A stretch of DNA of 64,000 nt, taken from assembly GCA_976551045.1 (NCBI GenBank), contig CDPCPM010000020.1, positions 2,418,001-2,482,000 of the forward strand, written 5' to 3'. Under the pieces are notes generated by a model that worked only from the letters and a program-made list of their open reading frames with translations, was not told the origin of the DNA and made no database searches. Source of the stretch: Glaucostegus cemiculus (Eukaryota). This document shows, piece by piece, positions 45,045-61,414 of this stretch (positions are counted from its first letter, which is position 1; each line of letters begins with the position of its first letter). Made by a program: the position numbers and the translations under genes.

Positions 45045-48000
45045 ATGGATGCGTTTATGAAAAAACCCACCCCAAGTGGATTGCAGAGAATGAAGGAGTC
45101 TGATTTATTAAATCTTGCTGCAGAGCTAAAACTTGAGACAGTAACAAAATCTATGAGAAAAGCAGATATCCAGAGAATAATAGCTGGTTATTATGTGGAG
45201 ATGCAAGTGTTTGACTAGGGAGTAGTAAAACAATTTCCTGGCAGTGAACAAATGATTTCTGATGCTCAAGTTCAGCTAGCCAAGATACAAGCTGAACAAA
45301 GAAAGATAGGTGCTGAGTTAGAAAGGGACCGATTGAAATTTGAGGCTGAAGCAGAGCAAAGGAAACTAGAACCTGAACAGGAAAGGGAACGACTGAGATT
45401 TGAAGCTCAGGCAAAGGAGGTTGGAATTAAAGAGGATGGAGCTGGAAAGTAAGGAAAGGGAGAAACAAAGGAAATATGATTTAAGACTGAAGAGACAGAG
45501 TTCGGAACCTGATTCTGATGATGAGTTTTCAGCCAGTAGGGAGGTTAGATTAGTCCCTCCTTTTGATGAAGATCAGGTTGAACAGTATTTCCAACATTTT
45601 GAAAAGGTTGCTACGGGTCTAAATTGGCCAAAGAGGAGATGGGCTCTTATGTTACAGAGTGTAATTAAAGGCAAAGCTCAAAAAGCTTATTCTGCTTTGT
45701 CTGTGGAGGAGGCAGCTGATTATGAAAAGGTAAAACAAGCAATCTTGAAAGTCTATGAGTTGGTACCGGAAGCATACAGACAAAAGTTTAGAGATTTGAA
45801 GAAAACTTCAGATCAAACATACATGGAGTTTGCCAATGGAAAGAGAACATGTTTTGAAAGGTGGTGTATGGCGAAAGATGTAGTTGATGATTATAAGAAA
45901 TTGGCAGAATTAGTTTTAATGGAAGACTTTAAAAGATGTGTACCAGCTGAAATAGCTGCATACCTAAATGAAAAGAATGTGGACACTTTACAAGAAACTG
46001 CTAGGTTGGCAGATGATTATGCTTTAACCCATAAATTCAAATGGGGACAAACTAAAACCTTTCAAAAGAGTTACAGAGACAATCCAGGTAAACCAGAGAT
46101 TAAATTGGGAGATAATCCGAAAGGGAAGGATGACAAGAAGCCAGTGCTGGAGAAATCTGTTGAGCGTCTTTGTTATTACGGTAAGAAGCCTGGTCATATG
46201 AAATTTGACAGTTCTGTTTTGAAGAAAAAGCAAGAAAAGGGAGCTGTGCCAACTGCTTGTTGTCAAGTTATTAAACCCGAAAATAAAAGAGGTGTTGGGG
46301 AGGTTGTGAAAGATCAGTCCTTGCCAGAGGCGAAGACTGAAAAGTTGGATGAGGTGAGGGAGGAATTCCGTTCTTATGTATCAGAAGGTTTTGTTTCACT
46401 GAATGATGGGTCACCCCAGGTGCCAGTGAAAATCCTTAGAGATACTGGAGCTTCCCAATCTCTCTTGCTGGACAGTGTTTTAAATTTTGGTAAGGAAACT
46501 GAAACTGGTGAGGTAAATCTAGTGCGAGGTGTTACAGGTGATACTATGTTTGTCCTTTGCACAAGGTGATTTTAAAATCAAAGTTCATAGAAGGACCTGT
46601 TGAGATAGGGATACGACCAAGTTTACCAGTGGAGGGTGTTTCTTTGTTATTGGGAAATGACCTTGCAGGTGAAGAATTTGTTCCTGTGGTACAGTTAACA
46701 ACGAAACCAAGCTTTACTGAATCTGAGAATGAGGCAGACGTTTATCCATCTTGTGCAGTAACTCGAGCTAAAGCTAAAGAATTAGCTAAGGCCGAGAATT
46801 CTACACAGTCTGAAATTTTTCCCTGTGATAGTCCTAAACAAGAGGAAAATTATGATGATTTGTCTGACACTTTTCTGTCTTCACTGGAGGATCAAAGTTT
46901 TGGTAGTGGGCCTGAATACAAAGATTTGTCTTTGTCAAGGAAAGAATTTATGGTGGAACAGAATAAAGACCCTGAGCTCACTGAACTGAGGGAAAAAGCA
47001 CTCTCATGTGAGGAAATTGAAAAAGTGCCAGTTGGATATTATGTCAAAGATGGATTGTTAATGAGGAAATGGAGACCGCCTCATGTCCCTATGAATGAGG
47101 AGTGGGAAGTTATTCATCAGGTTGTAGTTCCTAAAGTTTATCGGGATGAGATTTTAAACCTGGCCCATAGCATGCCTTTAGGTGGTCATTTAGGGGTGAA
47201 TAAAACTGTGGGGAAGATTTTGAAACAATTCTATTGGCCTGGTTTGAGAAAGGATGTGGTGATGTTTTGTCGAACCTGTCATACATGTCAGATGGTAGGT
47301 AAACCAAATCAAAAACCCCCTGTGGCTCCTCTGAAACCCATTCCTGAGTTTGGTGAATGTTTTTTGAAGGTGATTTTGGATTGTGTTGGACCATTGCCAA
47401 AGTCTGAAGTTGGGAATCAGTGTGTGAGGAATGCCCCTGGGACATTTGTTGTTGACAATGAGGAAGGCCAATGTAGACCAGATATTGTTTCAGCAAGGCT
47501 AGAAAACCAAAATATCTTGGAGAACCTTGAGACAAAGTTGGACCATTTACAAGATTCACAGAAACAGCAGATGAAACAGTTACTTTTAAAATTTAAAAAT
47601 CTTTTTCCCAATGTGCCAAACAGAACATCAATAATTACCCATGATGTTGACGTTGGGGATGCAAAACCAATCAAACAACACCCATATCGAATGAATGTGG
47701 ATAAAAGTAAACTTGTTGATCAGGAAATTGAGTATATGTTAGAAAATGATATCATCAGACGTTCCAGTTCAAACTGGAGTTCGCCCTGTGTTATTGTGCC
47801 TAAACCTGATGGGACCATTAGATTTTGTACAGATTACAAAAAAGTGAATGCTGTGACAAAGTCGGATGCATACCCCATTCAAAGGGTGGATGATTGTATA
47901 GATAGAGTGGGGAAAGCCAAATTTCTTACAAAGATTGATTTACTAAAAGGGTACTGGTGTGTTCCATTAACAGAGAGAGGAAGGGAGATTTCTGCCTTTG

Positions 48001-48923
48001 CAACCCCTTCTGGATTGTATGAATACAATGTTTTGCCATTTGGAATGAAAAATGCCCCAGCAACATTTCAAAGAATGATTAATTCAGTGATTCATGGGTT
48101 AAAACATACAGATGCCTACATTGATGATCTAGTGACAGGGAATGATACATGGGAGGATCACATCATTGCATTAGAAAGGTTGTTTGAAAGACTTTCCAAA
48201 GCTAACCTTACAGTTAATTTGGCTAAAAGTGAATTTGGCCATGCCACTGTGACATATCTTGGTTATGTTGTAGGTCAAGGCAAGTTAGCACCTGTTCAGG
48301 CAAAAGTTCAAGCAATATCTGAATTCCCTGTTCCTACAGGTATCAGGACTGTTAGAAGATTTCTGGGAATGGTTGGATATTATCAGAAATTTTGTAAAAA
48401 TTTTGCTGATATTGCTCTTCCCTTAACTAATCTTCTGAAGAAGGGAGTGAAATTTGTTTGGACAGATTCTTGTCAAGAAGCATTTGAGAAGCTAAAAGCC
48501 ATTTTGTGTTACTATCCTGTGCTCAAGTCACCTGACTTTGAAAAGCCATTTTCATTAGCAGTAGATGCCAGTGATGAAGCTGCAGGAGCTGTGTTGTTGC
48601 AGAAGAGTGACCTTGATGATATTGACCATCCTGTAGCTTACTTTTCAAAAAAGTTTAATGAGCACCAGAAGAATTACTCTACCATAGAGAAAGAATTGCT
48701 TTCACTTATTTTAGCCTTACAACATTTCAATGTGTATGTTTGCACAACTCAGAAACCGCTGATTATATACACAGATCATAATCCGTTAGTGTTTCTGAGC
48801 CGAGTGAAAAACAAAAACAGACGGCTGTTAAACTGGAGCTTAATTCTGCAAGAGTTTGACCTCATGATAATTCACATTAAAGGCAAAGATAATGTGATTG
48901 CTGATTGCCTTTCTCGATGTTAA
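45045..48923 (+). pseudogene. gag-pol polyprotein (SCAN-related capsid, degenerate zinc knuckle, protease, truncated integrase, RT, RNase H)
   Basis: LVPPF..YFQHFEKVA..W, YELVPEAYRQKFR; CYYGKKPGHMKFDS; ILRDTGASQS; HSMPLGGHLG...CRTCHTC; RFCTDYKKVN, PFGMKNAPATFQ, YIDD; VDAS, TDH, ADCLSR. Lesions: TAG at 45216, frameshifts near 45410 and 46555, internal deletion near 47420. Confidence 0.95.
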
Positions 48924-49658: not shown

Positions 49659-50562
49659 TTTTTTTTTGGTTTTTTTTAAGATGGCGGCGCACACAGTTGC
49701 AGCGGCCTCTCCCAGGTCTGTAGTGCTTGTGTTTTTTTGTTAGTCTTCTAGTGTTTTTTCTGCTTTTTTTCTTGTGTGGTCTTTGTTCCTGATGCTTGTG
49801 TGCTTGGTCTTCGTTTTATGGAGTCGTTGTCGGTACTTACGGCTCCGACGGCTCGTCGGAGCTCATCGGAGGCGGCAGCGTGGCGAAGGCCCTGGAGCCT
49901 CGTGGTGGCGTCGGGATGCGGGCGGTGAGGGGGCTGCTCGGGCCGGAGGTGGTCGGCCTGCGGGGCTGGAGGTCGTCGGACTGCGGAGCCCGGGCCGGAG
50001 GTGGCCTGCGGGGCTGGAGATCGTCGGACTGCGGAGCTGGAATTCGGGGCTGGAGGTCGTCGGACTGCGGAGCCGGAGGTGAAGGAGCCGGGGGTCGTCG
50101 GCCTGGGGGGCTGGAGGTCGTCGGACTGCAGGGCCGGAGGCCGTCGGACTGCGGGGCCGGAGGTGGTCGGACTGTCGGACTGCGGGGCTGGAGGTTGTTG
50201 ATGGTCTGTGGGCCCTGAGGTTGTAGGACTGCGGGGGTTGGAGGCGGTCGTCGGTGCGGGGTGAGGCTGGGGGGCTGTTAATGTTTTGATGTTTTTGTCC
50301 CGGTGTCCTTTATTGTCTTTGATGTCTTTTGCACAGGTAGACGTGAAAGTGACAATAGATAAATTGATTCTGAATTTAATTTCAATCTCCATAGCTTTTA
50401 ATGTATAATGTTTTGTACTGTGTATTCTGCCAAGTGTGTATGTGTCTCTCTGTTGGTTGTTATGTTATTTTTTTTATGGCACGAGCACCTGAGGAGGACG
50501 GTATCTCGCTCCTATGCATACTTTGTATGTATATGGTTGTGACAATAAAACTGATTCTGATT
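49659..50562 (+). mobile_element. Non-coding non-LTR retroposon (possibly a Rex1/Babar-group non-autonomous derivative) inside the 3' LTR
   Basis: TSD CTGAACTG (49651-49658, 50563-50570). Starts with a T-run then AAGATGGCGGC; ends AATAAAA(CTGATT)2. Confidence 0.85.
49930..50260 (+). repeat. GC/CpG-rich imperfect minisatellite
   Basis: Recurrent ~20-30-nt units of type GGGGC(T/C)GGAGGTCGTCGGACTGC. Confidence 0.85.
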
Positions 50563-54770: not shown

Positions 54771-55597
54771 TACTATGATGCTGGAGGAACTCAGCAGGCC
54801 AGGCAGCATTCATGGAGAAAAGCAGGCGGTCAATGTTTCGGGTCAGGACCCTTCTTCAGGACTGAAGATAGGGAAAGGGGAAGCCCAATATATAGGAGGG
54901 AAAAGCAGAGCAGGGATAGGTGGACAAGAGAGGGGAGGTGGGGTGGGCACAGGGTGGTGATAGGTAGATGCAGGTAGGAGACAGTGATGGGCAGGTGTGG
55001 GGGAGGAGGGGAGAGCAGGTCCACTGGGGGATGGGTTAAAGGTAAGGAGAAAAGGGAAAAAGGAAACGGTAGAAAAAAAGAGATATGCTAGGAAAGGGAA
55101 GAAGAGAAGAAGCCTGGTTGGGGGGAGGGGTGTGTGGGGATTAAAGTGGGAGAATTCAATGTTTAGGCAACATAAAATGTTAAGTAATCCCCACAACCCT
55201 TCCCCACATCCCCCCTCCCCCCCAACCAGGTTTCTTCTCTTCTTCCCTTTCCTAGCCTATCTTTTTTCTATCCTCCCTTTTACCTTTTAACCCATTTCCT
55301 GGTGGATCTACTCTCCCCTCCTTCCCCACATCACTGCTCATAACTGTCTCTTACCTGCATCTACCTATCACCACCTCGTGCCCACCCTGCCTCCCCTCTT
55401 TTGTCCACCTATCACTGTTCTGTTCTTCCCCCCTATATACTGGGCTTCCCCTTTTCCTATTTTCAGTCCTGAAGAAGGGTCCTGACCCAAAACGTTGACC
55501 GCCTGTTTTTCTCCACGGATGCTGCCTGGCCTGCTGAGTTCCTCCAGCATCATCATGTTTTTCATCTCGATTCCAGTATCTGCAGTCCTTTGTTTCT
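54771..55597. mobile_element. Penelope-like element made of two inverted pLTRs (long palindrome)
   Basis: Arms ~54775-55143 and ~55186-55553. Flanked by ctggttcaatgaa / ctggttcagtgaa (13 bp, 1 mismatch). Centre encodes a PLE-type ORF end NIEFSHF on the minus strand. A hammerhead motif lies in each arm. Confidence 0.88.
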
Positions 55598-55810: not shown

Positions 55811-57821
55811 TTTATTTTTGGCCTAAATTTTAAAACTTTGGCATAACTGTCCTGCAGTGAATTGTATTGAAGGATGCATAGAACAATGCACTTCCAATGC
55901 CTTTGAGTTAATTTGACTAAAATAAAACTATTACTTTATGTAAAAGGAGTACAAAATAAATTTTTGATCTAAATTCCAATTCTCTCATAACGGGCATCTA
56001 TTCATAACCTCTAATAAAGAGCTCTGCTGCCCTCTTCTGTAATTAATAATAACTGCATCACACATGTTCCACACAGTTTGAATATCACCAGTTTGGTTTT
56101 CTGATTATCTCAAAGCATTTTACAACTTTTGAAGCATTGTCACTGTTTTAATGGAGGAAACTTGGCAGTCAATTTGTGCTTCAACTTCAACTGTACTATG
56201 GCAATAGTCAGATAATCTGATTTAGTTGTCACAAATCAAACTGAATCAGAAGAGAGTTAGTAATAAAGTCACAACTGAAACATTAAACAGAATTTATGCA
56301 TCTCGCACAAAATGCACATGTTAAACAATGCAGTGAGAACACTTCCTGTAGATGGGGCAGATGGCAAAGTGTTCTGCGAATGTTAGATGGGAAGGAGAAG
56401 AAAGACACAAAGTCTTTCCAGAAAACTGCTGAGTATGCTTCACAGAAATGCTATTCAGATATCTAAAAATAAGTTCAGTCATTTGAGGGATCATGTTTAC
56501 AGTTACTAAATAAATTTAATTTCAAGTAGTAAATCAGGGGGGAGAGAATCAGGATGAGAGGGGAGATGAGAATATTTTTCTTTCACCCAAACGGTGGTTG
56601 GAGTCTGGAACTCACTGCCTGAAAGACTGGAGGAGGCAGAAACTCCCATCACATTTGAGAAGTACCTGGACCAACATGTGCCATAACCTACTGGCTAACA
56701 GGTGAGAAGTGGATTCAATCTTATAGCTGAAGGATGAACTTTAAAAAAAATACAGCACAACACAGACAGAACTGTCAAAAAAGTAATATTTTTATTTATC
56801 AGGCAGTAATTTGCAAAATTCACTCAGCATGTTCATTTCCAGAAGGAAAAACAACTTAACTTAGACAGATACCTGTTTAATGATGTTGCCTCGTGGTTCC
56901 TGTTGAGAACTGGCCGCTGTTCTTCCTCAGACATCATTCTTCAGCAAGGACTGGGGAGCAAGAACGCCGGCCATCAGCATTAATGGCCCTATCCGAAGGA
57001 ATTTTGTGATGCAGACCTAATATAAGGTCAAGACTTGTCAAAAGCCCTTTTCCTGCCAACATGGTTATGATAAGCCAATTGGACCTAGTCTATAATGGGA
57101 ACTTCTGTGATCCAGTTCTGGGAAGGCAGAAGTGGTCCATACAAAAAGGAAAATCTGCATTGAGCAGCAGTGCCACTGACAGCAAAGCATCACTGAGGGA
57201 AGAGAAAGTTTGTTTACACTATTTTGTACAGGGTTGTTACTGTTTGTTATTCAGCTTTGCTAATGTAGAAACACCTCAGTCCTAATAAGTCAGTGTGAAG
57301 AATTTAATAACAGTTCTGCTAAATGCTCATTTCTTAAGTACCTCTTCTGCAACAACTTCAACTTTCTTAGAATAGTGGTTACTTATCAAACTTACTCAAG
57401 GTCCTTCATCACTAACTTGGAGTAATCCGTGCTGCGGCTGAGCAATAATGAGAGTCAGACAACAGATTTATTTCCAAGTGACTACCTGGGTTGATCATTA
57501 GTTGTGTCTTGCTTAAGACAACAGGTGTTCCAATTGCAGCTGGTGGAGTATTTAGGTGAACCTCAAAGAAGGTGGAAGCAGCAGATGGAGAACAGTAGAG
57601 CTGGGGAGAGAACACAGGCAGAACAAGTAGGTTTAAGAAAGCAAAGGTTTGTGGCATGCGGTTATTGAACTCAAATGCCTCAAGCAATGATCACGCTGTC
57701 CCACAGTGGGATGTCCAGGGCAGTGGTCACTCTGTCCCACAGTGGGACGTCCCAGAGTGGGAGCGAACCAGAGATCGAGAAGGTAATCCTTCTGCGGCTG
57801 GGATGTGGTGGGAAGGGAGCT

Positions 57822-57950
57822 CTCTGAAAGTTGACATTCACTCCCAGGTGGACAGGACCACAGCTGGTGCTACTGACAAATGGCACCCACATCTGTGTTC
57901 AGACCCAGCGTGACAGCCATTGGAAACAGTGGACTCAGGTTCAACCTAAG
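57822..57950 (+). pseudogene. Retroviral-type integrase C-terminus
   Basis: Frame starting 57843 reads PRWTGPQLVLLTNGTHICVQTQRDSHWKQWTQVQP, matching the retroviral PRWxGPxxVLLT...WxHxxxVK pattern. Confidence 0.7.
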
Positions 57951-58029
57951 GACTCATCTTCTTCTCATTCATGCAGACCGGCCGAGGGAGTCAGGTAGGC
58001 CACCGACACTCCCACTGCAGGAAACTCAA

Positions 58030-59325
58030 ATAATGAACACCCGCCTCCTGTTCTCATCTGACTGCTTCTGATAGAACTAGACCTCTGGACACAAGGGAAC
58101 GGGAAGTGACGGACTTGGAGAGGGCGCCGCAACAGACTGCAATGGAAGCGTCGAATCCTTGTAGTGGTACTTTTTATAATTGTAGTTCTGTAATGGAGGC
58201 TGGTGTGGATGTTCAGTGTTTAATGGGACAACTGGGAGAATGACAGGGAAGAGGAACATCTGTCATACATCAGTGTAGGGAAGGGAGGGAAAACTGACAT
58301 GGGAAGGGACATGAATTATGACAAGGGACAGCTTAGATCGGGGACAGCTATGCCAGTTATAAGGAAGGTCTGAGGGGAATACCACAATCTCACACTCGAG
58401 AGTATCAGCACTCGACGTGAGAAGGGTGAGAATCGCAACATCAAATACAGGAAGCTTGTGGCGTTTGAAGGAAACTGGGGGGTGGAAGTCCTGCAATTGG
58501 ATTGGACTGGAGAGGAATAGCAACTTTCTCCACCTCACGGGCCAAGCAGGCCAAGCCAAGAGAGACGGGTCAGGATGTGACTTTATATTACCCTGGATGG
58601 TGAAAGGAAATCGAGGGATATAGACTTGTGCGAGACCAGACACACTCCTATGGCCAACCAGCTTTAAGGAAACAGTAATGCAACCTATCAGAGCATATCA
58701 AAAGCTAGCCACTCCAACCTGGATGGGAGCGATCACCCATGAGCTGGGCGCCTTCAGTTGTAACAGGACACGTTTTTATGTCTCAACAGAGGATACGGCA
58801 CCTGACTGCGGACTTGACTGGGACCCTCAGCCTGGAACTGCAGGATGGAAGTCAGCAAAGGACAGTGACTGGCAGAGCAGGTAACATACTGTGGACAATA
58901 CTGTGTCACCACAATGACTTGGGAGCAATACTGTAGGCAGATTACATGCCATTTCCCTCAAAACACATCAGCTGGGTCAATGAAGAACAAACTTGGGAAG
59001 GAGCAGATGGAAATCATGGCAGAAAATTCCTTAGGGCCACTAACTCCACACATTACCAGTTTTGAACTGACATTCCCAAAGTACCAGAACAGTTAACTGA
59101 ACTCTCAGCACACATAAATGAATCACAAAACAATTATAATACCCTCACAAAGGATGACAAGACCACTAAAAGTGAAATAGCCACCATCTGGGGTGACTCA
59201 GAATGGTGGGACACAGGAATGAACATTCAAATTCCCCCACGGATTCAATTTCCCACATTATTTAGTCAGTAAGTTAGGAATAATCATAAATCTCCTCTAT
59301 ATTAGCTACAGCATTAAGCAGTTTG
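58030..59325 (+). pseudogene. Decayed env-like glycoprotein gene
   Basis: WKRRILVVVLFIIVVL (58143-58190); Cys-rich DCG...NCRMEV...YCGQYCVTT...C; heptad-like PEQLTELSAHINESQNNYNTL; WGDSEWWD; then a hydrophobic LGIIINLLYISY. Confidence 0.55.
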
Positions 59326-59532
59326 GGCACACCAGATACATAGTGTAGATAGGAACAGGTTTTGTAGTCACTTAGGGACTTGCACAGGATTTTTAGTGGG
59401 GACCATTGCAGTCTTAATTGTCCAGAATTGGGTGAGAATTTGTCCAGAATTTGTCTGGGGACAGCATCTCTAAATCAGTGCCCAGGTTTGACCTTCTCGG
59501 GACGGATTTCTGTTCAGGGGGCAACAGGAGGG

Positions 59533-60641
59533 TGTGTTAGGGAGCAGTGAGCCATAGTCGGAGGGTATAAAGTATAATAACCATTAATACAAGCAAGAAC
59601 CCACCTTCAAACCACTCCCAAATGTAATTGGTTTTGAAACAACACGTAAACAAGCCGTGAAGAGAGCAGAATGACTGGGCTCATAGTGGAACTAAAGGGG
59701 TCCTTCTCAGGTTGGTAGTAAGTGACTACCTGAGCTCAGGACCCCAGTTATTCACAATCTGCATCAATGATTTAGTCTAAAGATCCAAGCGTCATATTTC
59801 TGAGTTTGCTACTGATGTGAAACTAAGTAGAAATGTGAGTAGTGGTGAAGAAGCAAAGAGGCTTCAGGGGATATAGACAAGCTGAGTGAGTGGGCAACAA
59901 CATGGCAGATGGAGTACAATGTGGAAGTCCAGGTTATCCACCTTGGAAGGGAAAAAGCAGAGTGGGTATATCGTTAAATGGTGAGAGGGAAATGTTGCTG
60001 AATGGTGGAGCAGCCTCAAGGGACCAAATGTGCTGCTCAGACTTCTATTTCTTATGTTCTTATTCCAAGCAGAATCAAATGACAATGGGGCTGTGTTAAT
60101 TGGCCTACATCATCCAGGCATCAGCAGTATTCAGCTGAGTTGTTTTGCGCCACTGTGACAGAGATCAAGAAAGGTTCCAGAGAAGACTCATTATTTTGTC
60201 ACTTAGCTCATCAAACACGGTCATGTGCATATTGGTTCTGTTAATCAATAATTGGGATACTGTGCACCCAAAGTCAGCACTCACAACACTAATTTTGAAT
60301 GCCAGGGGTTTCTGTCCTCAGCTTTTAGACCATTCAAGTTGAGATTGCTCTCTTGTAAAAGTGTATGTCAGTGGAAGCATTTCTCTACACCCAGAATATT
60401 GAAGTAAACCATGTCATTGTAACTACTGAAATTATATTCAAGCACCTGCTATTATCTGTTAACTAATACTATAAAAACTTGATGTACTTTGTTCAGTGAG
60501 ATTCTCCAGAGATTCCACTGAGAGATTCTCCCAGGGGAAGAGTCTTCCACCAGGTCTTCTCCTGAATGTCTGTTTGTGCTGAATAAAGACCTTTTACATC
60601 GACAACTCCAGTTTTGATGTGGCTCATTCACAGTCACAGCA
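59533..60641 (+). repeat. Possible 3' LTR of the ERV-like relic, interrupted by a CR1 fragment (~59660-60060)
   Basis: Purine tract AGGAGGG then TG at 59533/59535; TATAAAA at 60470, AATAAA at 60582, CA near 60641. No matching 5' LTR seen. Confidence 0.35.
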
Positions 60642-61414
60642 CCATGGTGTTGCTGAATGTTGGAGCAGGCACAAAGGACCAAGTGTCCTGTGCCTGCTTC
60701 TATTTCTTATGTTCTTATTCCAAATAGAATCAAATGACAAGATTATATTTGAAGTTTTTGACCTTGTAATAAAAAAGAGGGTATGGCCCCCTTTAAAAGC
60801 CAGCAGTTATAGGCTCAGCTAATGTTAATTATTTTTTGCTGCAAGTTTCTCACAGGTTTGAAGGATATTAGAGCCATATTCGCAAGGCTTTGTAAGTTAA
60901 AGGCTGTGAAGTCTGAGAGAGAGTTTACAGCAGAAGTGAAAATGAAAAGTAAATTGAATCGTGCTTGTGAGGATTGCTTGCCCGTTAAGGAGTTTTGTAG
61001 TTCAAGTCTGAAAATTGCAAGCATTCACTCAGTTCCAATATGATTGATTTACAATAGAGTAAAGAAAATACATTAGATTGATTTTATTAACATTGTCATT
61101 TTTGTTCAATTACTGTTAAAGGTCCAATATAGTTGTTGCTGCTTTTCCTTTAGCGCACTCAAACCAATAATCGTTCCATCTCTTAGAAAGTAGTCTTACA
61201 CGAATCAGACCCAGCTGAAGAATGAGCAGATTGGCCATTTCATTCAGTTTTATTTCAAGAATGTGTAATTTTTTCTCTTACATAGTAGAATAGTGAAGAG
61301 TTTTGCATGGAAAAAGCAAAACAAGCAAGGCCCTAAACGTATTCTGTGCCAAACAAGTAAAATGGAGCAGACAAGAGGCTCCACACAAACCAACAGCTTA
61401 CAGCTGGATAGGCA

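Follow-up and report, generated by a model that had tools for sequence, protein, structure and literature searches.

A dead endogenous retrovirus in Glaucostegus cemiculus belongs to a family with a probable F-type envelope protein

A stretch of 64,000 nucleotides from Glaucostegus cemiculus (assembly GCA_976551045.1, contig CDPCPM010000020.1, positions 2,418,001 to 2,482,000 of the forward strand; here called the window) contains the relic of an endogenous retrovirus (ERV). This locus is probably the dead 3' part of a class III-grade ERV of sharks and rays that resembles the snakehead retrovirus (SnRV) and had a predicted F-type envelope protein (Env). For the env family itself, sequence profiles and structural models make it very probable that the protein is F-type, a class I fusion protein of the paramyxovirus and pneumovirus kind. 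A sequence-only reading had noticed the relic, which is hidden from the track of open reading frames (ORFs); blastn and Pfam searches confirmed its integrase tail, env, purine tract and long terminal repeat (LTR). The proposal of an F-type env in a chondrichthyan retroelement is supported by Foldseek, by hhalign and by chondrichthyan env homologues.

Homologues of the env are found in cartilaginous fish

A profile made from 19 natural pieces of the env was searched against 1.84 billion representatives. The first search gave ten matches, eight of them to proteins of named sharks or a skate, one unnamed and one to an unrelated repeat protein; the second gave 24 proteins, 22 of which are named, all from sharks, and two unnamed. 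Every named true env homologue is chondrichthyan, which by itself points to a shark or ray as the likely host. The full layout is seen in P0013 (714 aa), which starts with a signal peptide, an N-terminal domain, a strand and a helix, the cleavage site RSKR, a fusion peptide and heptad A, and continues with a Cys-containing beta core, heptad B, a Trp-rich segment, a transmembrane anchor and a tail. The first ~230 residues of P0003, annotated as 'Niban 1-like' in Pristiophorus japonicus, are this env, and P0003 is likely a chimeric gene model.

Sequence profiles and structural models point to an F-type Env

Two alignments of the family (A5 and A6) were compared with retroviral Env using hhalign. 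A6 matched the Env pair of lokiretroviruses with a probability of 92% (E 5.5e-7) and a score of 58, compared to a maximum of 19.3 in 18 column shuffles. These two loki-type loci were fetched by the loki reverse transcriptase (RT) motif, and their Env match Pfam Fusion_gly at E 0.002 and 1e-5. A5 matched the Env of L203 over 452 columns (probability 88%, score 58 against a maximum of 25.5 in 19 shuffles). With 12,708 nt, L203 has the genome length of walleye dermal sarcoma virus (WDSV) and stands here for WDSV. A5 also matched the Env of L157 at E 8e-4 (score 36.9, maximum of 19 shuffles 23.7); the score of A6 with this Env was only 25.3. L157 has the length of the SnRV genome, 10,688 nt (PMC12193657). 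Both Envs, which match the family and have no Pfam env match, are likely F-type themselves as judged from sequence. Foamy and gamma Env gave no hhalign match beyond chance or the transmembrane segment, and mammalian foamy Env reached E 0.1-0.25 against the env profile.

AlphaFold2 models were calculated for two unaltered family proteins of sharks. The sequence-only reading had suggested a comparison with fusion protein structures, and in this comparison Foldseek ranked pneumo- and paramyxovirus F proteins first, with low-confidence models. For model 1, the top ten PDB rows were all pneumo- or paramyxovirus F, the best being F of respiratory syncytial virus (E 8.6e-4); for model 2 the top ten rows were all pneumovirus F (best E 0.18). 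In BFVD, Env of WDSV came first (E 1e-6), followed by F-type glycoproteins of invertebrate viruses, Env of walleye epidermal hyperplasia virus 1 (WEHV1) and feline foamy virus Env. The fold evidence alone is suggestive; the sequence profiles are a separate line of evidence.

Several observations weigh against an F-type Env. Both models are poor (mean predicted local distance difference test values of 49.6 and 52.8), for model 2 no E-value was lower than 0.18, the fold matches have TM-scores below 0.3 with root-mean-square deviations of 25-40 Å, and VIA-align found generic helix matches only. The profile matches depend on the alignment, with probabilities of 8% for A5 with loki, 5% for A6 with WDSV and 1.5% for A6 with SnRV, and hmmsearch of the same loki, WDSV and SnRV Envs gave 0-5 bits, barely more than the shuffles. 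Among the env proteins of the family, none matches Fusion_gly or another viral env family of Pfam, and no F protein turned up when PDB sequences were searched with env profiles. The reading of the locus as a whole is further weakened because RT and fusion peptide are both missing from the window itself; they are known from sister copies that are 68-74% identical.

The low-confidence models, the helix matches of VIA-align and the missing Pfam match could also mean that long helices alone give rise to the F-like signal, the env being unrelated or of the ordinary gamma or epsilon type. This is improbable, since the profile matches span 285-452 columns across the beta-rich core and exceed all shuffles, F proteins and not generic coiled coils lead both Foldseek lists over 350-500 columns, and the CX6CC motif and the immunosuppressive domain, both present in the gamma control, are missing from the family sequences compared. 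The absence of these two motifs, already noted in the sequence-only reading, was confirmed in the three forward frames of the window, and they are likewise absent from the frames of the sister copy L022 and from P0013.

The family is old, multi-copy and decayed

The window genome (2.85 Gb) was searched at the DNA level with positions 57800-59600 of the window, yielding at least 42 matches (40 of 74 candidates were scored). The best other copy is 68% identical over ~1 kb. Across the sister copies, gag with a zinc knuckle, protease, RT, tether, RNase H, integrase and env are present. In the sister copy L021/L022, gag keeps the remnant of a zinc knuckle, and protease, RNase H (E 2e-5), integrase (E 5e-4) and env are present as well, but RT is not; in the gag of L018 the motif CX2CX4HX4C is visible (zf-CCHC_4, E 0.098). 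L099, with an integrase tail 74% identical to that of the window, retains RT and tether in a single frame that five stops interrupt; this frame was read with X as P0012. Since the flanks on both sides of this RT match both sides of the gap in L021, it was taken as the family's own.

L021, L100 and L101 pass from protease to RNase H and integrase without an RT; L099, L209 and L210 keep it. The RT-less copies are likely non-autonomous deletion forms, and together with solo LTRs they fit a long residence with deletion and recombination. The copies in an alignment of 28 are only 45-70% identical to the window, therefore the family is old and decayed. The earlier reading had proposed a genome-wide search for intact copies; the copies found are decayed.

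This genome also carries several other subfamilies of this F-type env that differ markedly from it (L097/L098, L104, L115/L116, L119, L122, L125, L126 and L105-L113), some with short N-terminal parts; all copies seen are broken. In L029 the first-heptad region of env is doubled in tandem (1299-1749). The same genome is also rich in young class I ERVs, which have long open frames and a gamma-type transmembrane protein (PF22307; L080, L086, L090; ~150 integrase matches).

The RT places the family outside lokiretroviruses and classes I and II, in one grade with SnRV and foamy viruses

P0012 has the RT motifs LPQG and YVDD and scores 158 bits with murine leukemia virus (MLV), 116 with foamy virus and 62 with Ty3. 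RT trees of 34 and 21 rows were calculated, in which the family is represented by this one decayed copy. Lokiretroviruses and gypsy elements are split from the family by a branch with support of 100/98-99, and class I and II are split from the family, SnRV and foamy viruses by a branch with support of 99-100/98. SnRV, the foamy viruses and P0012 meet in an open fork. The RT phylogeny of relatives called for in the sequence-only reading puts the family outside class I and II and outside loki plus gypsy, and not within gamma and epsilon. The family RT is inside Retroviridae. Approximately unbiased (AU) tests rejected a clade with loki (p-AU 0.006) and a clade with epsilonretroviruses (p-AU 0.0007), and did not reject clades with SnRV (p-AU 0.417) or foamy viruses (p-AU 0.415). 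RT identity is highest to SnRV (34%).

An origin from errantiviruses or Ty3/gypsy elements is excluded by the RT scores with MLV and Ty3 and by the tree. A class I (gamma/epsilon) ERV was rejected as well, with the RT outside class I in the trees, the p-AU for the epsilon clade, and no CX6CC or immunosuppressive domain. The window contains a decayed Ty3/gypsy pol at 46911-48920 (+ strand), which was used as an outgroup row for the RT; its integrase zinc finger precedes the RT in coordinates, suggesting a rearrangement or two pieces.

By sequence, the RNase H is of the epsilon/gamma/SnRV kind: phmmer gave 51.6 bits with WDSV, 35.9 with gamma, 28.5 with SnRV, 7-10 with foamy and 0.5 with loki (scores, not a tree). 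The integrase core, also compared by scores only and with no CGIN1 reference, gave 53 bits with class I, 45-48 with loki, 38 with gamma and 30 with SnRV, and its only PDB matches are to the integrase of prototype foamy virus (PFV). The integrase tail is by score closer to gamma and epsilon.

The term SnRV-like is the best label for the family, short of proven membership. The likeness to SnRV and clade Huo lies in the RT motifs, the highest RT identity, one gag zinc knuckle, the RNase H group, the MLVIN_C-type integrase tail and a non-gamma Env with weak homology. The family differs in a shorter Env with another N-terminal domain and a better match to WDSV and loki. This label is weakened by several points: the RT comes from a single, long-branched copy and no supported node joins it to SnRV, the p-AU for foamy viruses is practically the same as that for SnRV, the integrase core is closer to class I and loki by score, and the trees were without ERV-L, CmiERV and fish foamy-like references, all foamy rows being of the mammalian type. 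The expectation that such lineages are not well described in this host group did not hold: SnRV-related ERVs of the elephant shark (CmiERV lineage I) are reported in PMC4422223 (see also PMC4977317). According to the respective sources, SnRV-like ERVs form clade Huo within class III (PMC8922424) and class III is the dominant RT type of cartilaginous fish (bioRxiv 10.1101/2023.10.17.562709).

It is possible, though rather unlikely, that the family forms a deep retrovirus lineage of its own in chondrichthyans, a mosaic with a class III-grade RT, an epsilon/gamma-type RNase H, a class I-like or loki-like integrase core and an F-type Env. The RT is not settled among SnRV, foamy viruses and the root and shares just a third of its residues with SnRV, the best scores of RNase H and integrase core lie with WDSV and with class I and loki, respectively, and the Env matches WDSV and loki better than SnRV. 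However, the poor resolution is explained by the RT being a decayed pseudogene on a long branch, the SnRV clade is not rejected, scores are not trees, and the SnRV-related lineage reported for the elephant shark argues against a lineage apart.

For the suggestion 'lokiretrovirus-like' one part stood and one did not. Homology to loki Env is detectable, and both Envs share the layout of signal, F2-like strand, R-X-K-R, fusion peptide, heptads and transmembrane anchor; membership is excluded by the RT motif, the RT tree with its AU test and the RNase H scores. That the family belongs to the lokiretroviruses, as their first chondrichthyan case, is therefore very improbable in spite of the Env homology and the integrase core score. 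P0012 reads RLPQGF where loki RT reads RCPFGY, the separating branch is strongly supported, the family Env has an extra N-terminal domain and no direct Fusion_gly match, and an exact-match search for the loki RT pattern found none in the genome; this reading is refuted unless the L099 RT is foreign to the family. The source describing lokiretroviruses places their RT as sister to all retroviruses, their RNase H in group I with foamy viruses and their integrase near CGIN1, relates their Env to mononegaviral F (PF00523), notes an smc-like gene in some members and lists them in none of three chondrichthyan genomes (PMC7947760). Pfam scans of the heavily decayed gag regions of the present family gave no match to an smc-like gene.

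Foamy viruses share an RT of the same grade and an F-like fusion core (Env reported as F-like in PMC11468914), foamy Env appears in the fold lists, and PFV integrase and the p-AU of the foamy clade also fit a foamy-like ERV of cartilaginous fish. Such an origin is nevertheless improbable, because the RNase H scores, below 10 bits with foamy viruses and 52 with WDSV, and the gag zinc knuckle speak against it, and mammalian foamy Env is not matched by the env profile. Foamy Gag is not known to carry a Cys-His zinc knuckle.

WDSV and WEHV provide the best structural Env match, one of the two best Env profile matches and the best RNase H score; they differ in the rejected RT clade and in the length of WDSV Env, ~1229 codons. 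With pneumo- and paramyxovirus F and with the F-type Env of errantiviruses and baculoviruses, the family shares the predicted fold class and the order of elements, and differs in having a vertebrate retrovirus as carrier, an identity of 9-15% and the extra N-terminal domain.

Anatomy and decay of the window copy

Comparison with sister loci by blastn showed that the relic consists of integrase tail, env, purine tract and 3' LTR over ~57761-60641 (Table 1). The family match begins near 57761, ~60 nt to the left of the start given in the sequence-only reading. Positions 56000-57760 have no family match in a comparison with 11 loci, so the element is cut off 5' of ~57761, and no second LTR copy was found in window positions 1-59500 that could be the 5' LTR. 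A 36-nt tandem duplication (57684-57752) lies just left of the 5' break.

Table 1. Features of the retroviral relic in the window
Feature	Position	Strand	Evidence
Integrase C-terminal (SH3-like) tail	57761..57945	+	weak Pfam IN_DBD_C/MLVIN_C matches; blastn to sister copies; frame kept across copies
Candidate env splice acceptor, pyrimidine tract and AG	57959..57976	+	sequence; AG in 10/21 aligned rows
Likely start and signal peptide of env, now broken; overlap with end of pol frame	58033..58100	+	codon-position variation; tblastn to many copies
N-terminal env domain of the subfamily, frameshifted; putative receptor-binding/surface part	58100..58760	+	nucleotide identity to L022; weak P0002 match
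Internal-deletion junction, ~1.07 kb lost	58754..58832	+	blastn to L022
Cys-containing beta region of fusion subunit, profile positions 500-544	58836..58964	+	env profile 8.4 bits; E 0.011 to P0027
Second heptad repeat and Trp-rich membrane-proximal segment	59066..59248	+	env profile 5.7 bits; tblastn
Transmembrane anchor, past a frameshift	59254..59320	+	hydropathy; blastn to L022 at 59204-59304; same place in P0013
Polypurine tract	59516..59532	+	sequence; same tract in 4/4 sister copies compared
3' LTR, TG...CA, AATAAA at 60582	59533..60641	+	blastn to many loci including solo LTRs
CR1-type LINE (long interspersed element) fragment inserted in LTR, edges approximate	59650..60085	+	tblastn to LINE ORF2; gap in LTR matches

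The integrase tail seen in the sequence-only reading was confirmed by weak Pfam matches and a frame kept across copies. Translated 57828-57995 matched IN_DBD_C (E 0.0098) and MLVIN_C (E 0.023), in neither case reaching the curated cut-off; the tail of sister copies matched better (MLVIN_C, E 7e-6). In the alignment of 28 copies, which was used for all counts of frames, codon positions and AG, the tail frame contains 9 stops among 921 codons (18 rows; ~1%), compared to ~5% in the other two frames. At the proposed splice acceptor, about half of the aligned rows retain the AG.

With its signal segment the sequence-only reading may have meant the basic-then-hydrophobic run at 58110-58190, which is probably off-frame (a weak test with 11 rows). 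The signal peptide is likely the ATG-led hydrophobic run upstream of it, where third codon positions are the most variable (0.26/0.25/0.34, 24 rows). The N-terminal env domain, without Pfam match in the window and in L022, is unlike that of P0013 and weakly resembles the skate protein P0002 (E 0.011 for the window, 5e-4 for L022).

Window and L022 are 68% identical over 1033 nt. Position 58754 corresponds to L022 1178 and position 58832 to L022 2328, showing that ~1.07 kb of env is missing; the internal deletion noticed in the sequence-only reading was thereby confirmed, and so were its frameshifts. The lost part, which spans the F2-like strand and the cleavage site, the fusion peptide with the first heptad, and most of the core, is present in L022 in one frame with three stops (P0001), in the order beta-strand segment, helix, basic site, fusion-peptide-like run and long heptad. 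Because the fusion peptide is lost and no open env piece is longer than 86 aa, the window copy is dead and makes no working protein.

The Cys-rich block, the heptad segment and the WW motif of the sequence-only reading were recovered by the env profile, with the two scores given in Table 1 compared to 2.5 bits for the best of the 144 control frames elsewhere in the window that gave any domain. With tblastn, the heptad and Trp part matched P0002 (E 2.7e-4) and P0013 (E 0.01), and the Cys part P0027. The hydrophobic anchor was likewise found, and the purine tract and TG start are present and recur in sister copies. The LTR begins with TG at 59533 and ends with CA at 60640-41, and both ends recur in sister copies. 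Within it, the CR1-type insertion, which had escaped the sequence-only reading, gives a LINE ORF2 match at 59855-60049 (tblastn, E 3e-9), and the 93-nt tail of the LINE piece recurs at 60648-60740.

Elsewhere in the window, a fold-back of ~780 nt (54775-55553) consists of two inverted repeat copies that resemble the tails of short or long interspersed elements, with arms of 229 nt (89%) and nested shorter arms. A GC-rich array of 23-nt units is located at 49922-50245, and a similar array is found in L115.

A model for the ancestral Env

From the layout of the Env and what is established for class I F proteins, the following course can be proposed. Env of the ancestral virus would have been made from a spliced RNA and would have begun with a signal peptide; an N-terminal domain specific to the lineage, likely for receptor binding, would have come before an F2-like strand and helix. 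A furin-type protease of the host would cut at R-X-K/R-R and free the fusion peptide, and heptads A and B would then fold into a six-helix bundle, driving membrane fusion. Surface and fusion parts would be joined as in F proteins and not by the CXXC/CX6CC switch of the gamma type.

Implications for chondrichthyan and other retroviruses

The locus itself is a dead fragment; it is the family that matters. Surveys of Env in fish and sharks are described as having used gamma/beta or syncytin baits (10.1101/2021.11.23.469661; 10.64898/2026.05.06.723177), and work on the F-type Env of errantiviruses is described as leaving vertebrate ERVs to later studies (bioRxiv 10.1101/2023.10.26.564294). Owing to gamma- and beta-type baits and the blindness of Pfam, an entire class of envelopes in chondrichthyan ERVs has likely been overlooked. 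The data suggest that F-type Env is widespread among fish retroviruses, and the Viro3D source states that more F-like cases are expected in Retroviridae (PMC12583693). Our literature search found no paper calling the Env of SnRV, epsilonretroviruses or shark class III elements F-type, although subscription papers and preprint supplements may already do so. The annotated shark proteins of the family make the question of an F-type Env testable by structure.

Tentatively, and with some doubt, F-type Env could be the ancestral retroviral Env, with gamma- and beta-type Env as later replacements: one homologous fusogen would be present in lokiretroviruses, foamy viruses, SnRV, the epsilonretroviruses of walleye and the shark and ray ERVs of this family, a large radiation that Pfam does not see and perhaps a deep lineage of its own. 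If F-type Env does link these groups, an F-like Env would likely be an old retroviral state and not an oddity of loki and foamy viruses, and this would bear on the direction in which F passed between retroviruses and mononegaviruses.
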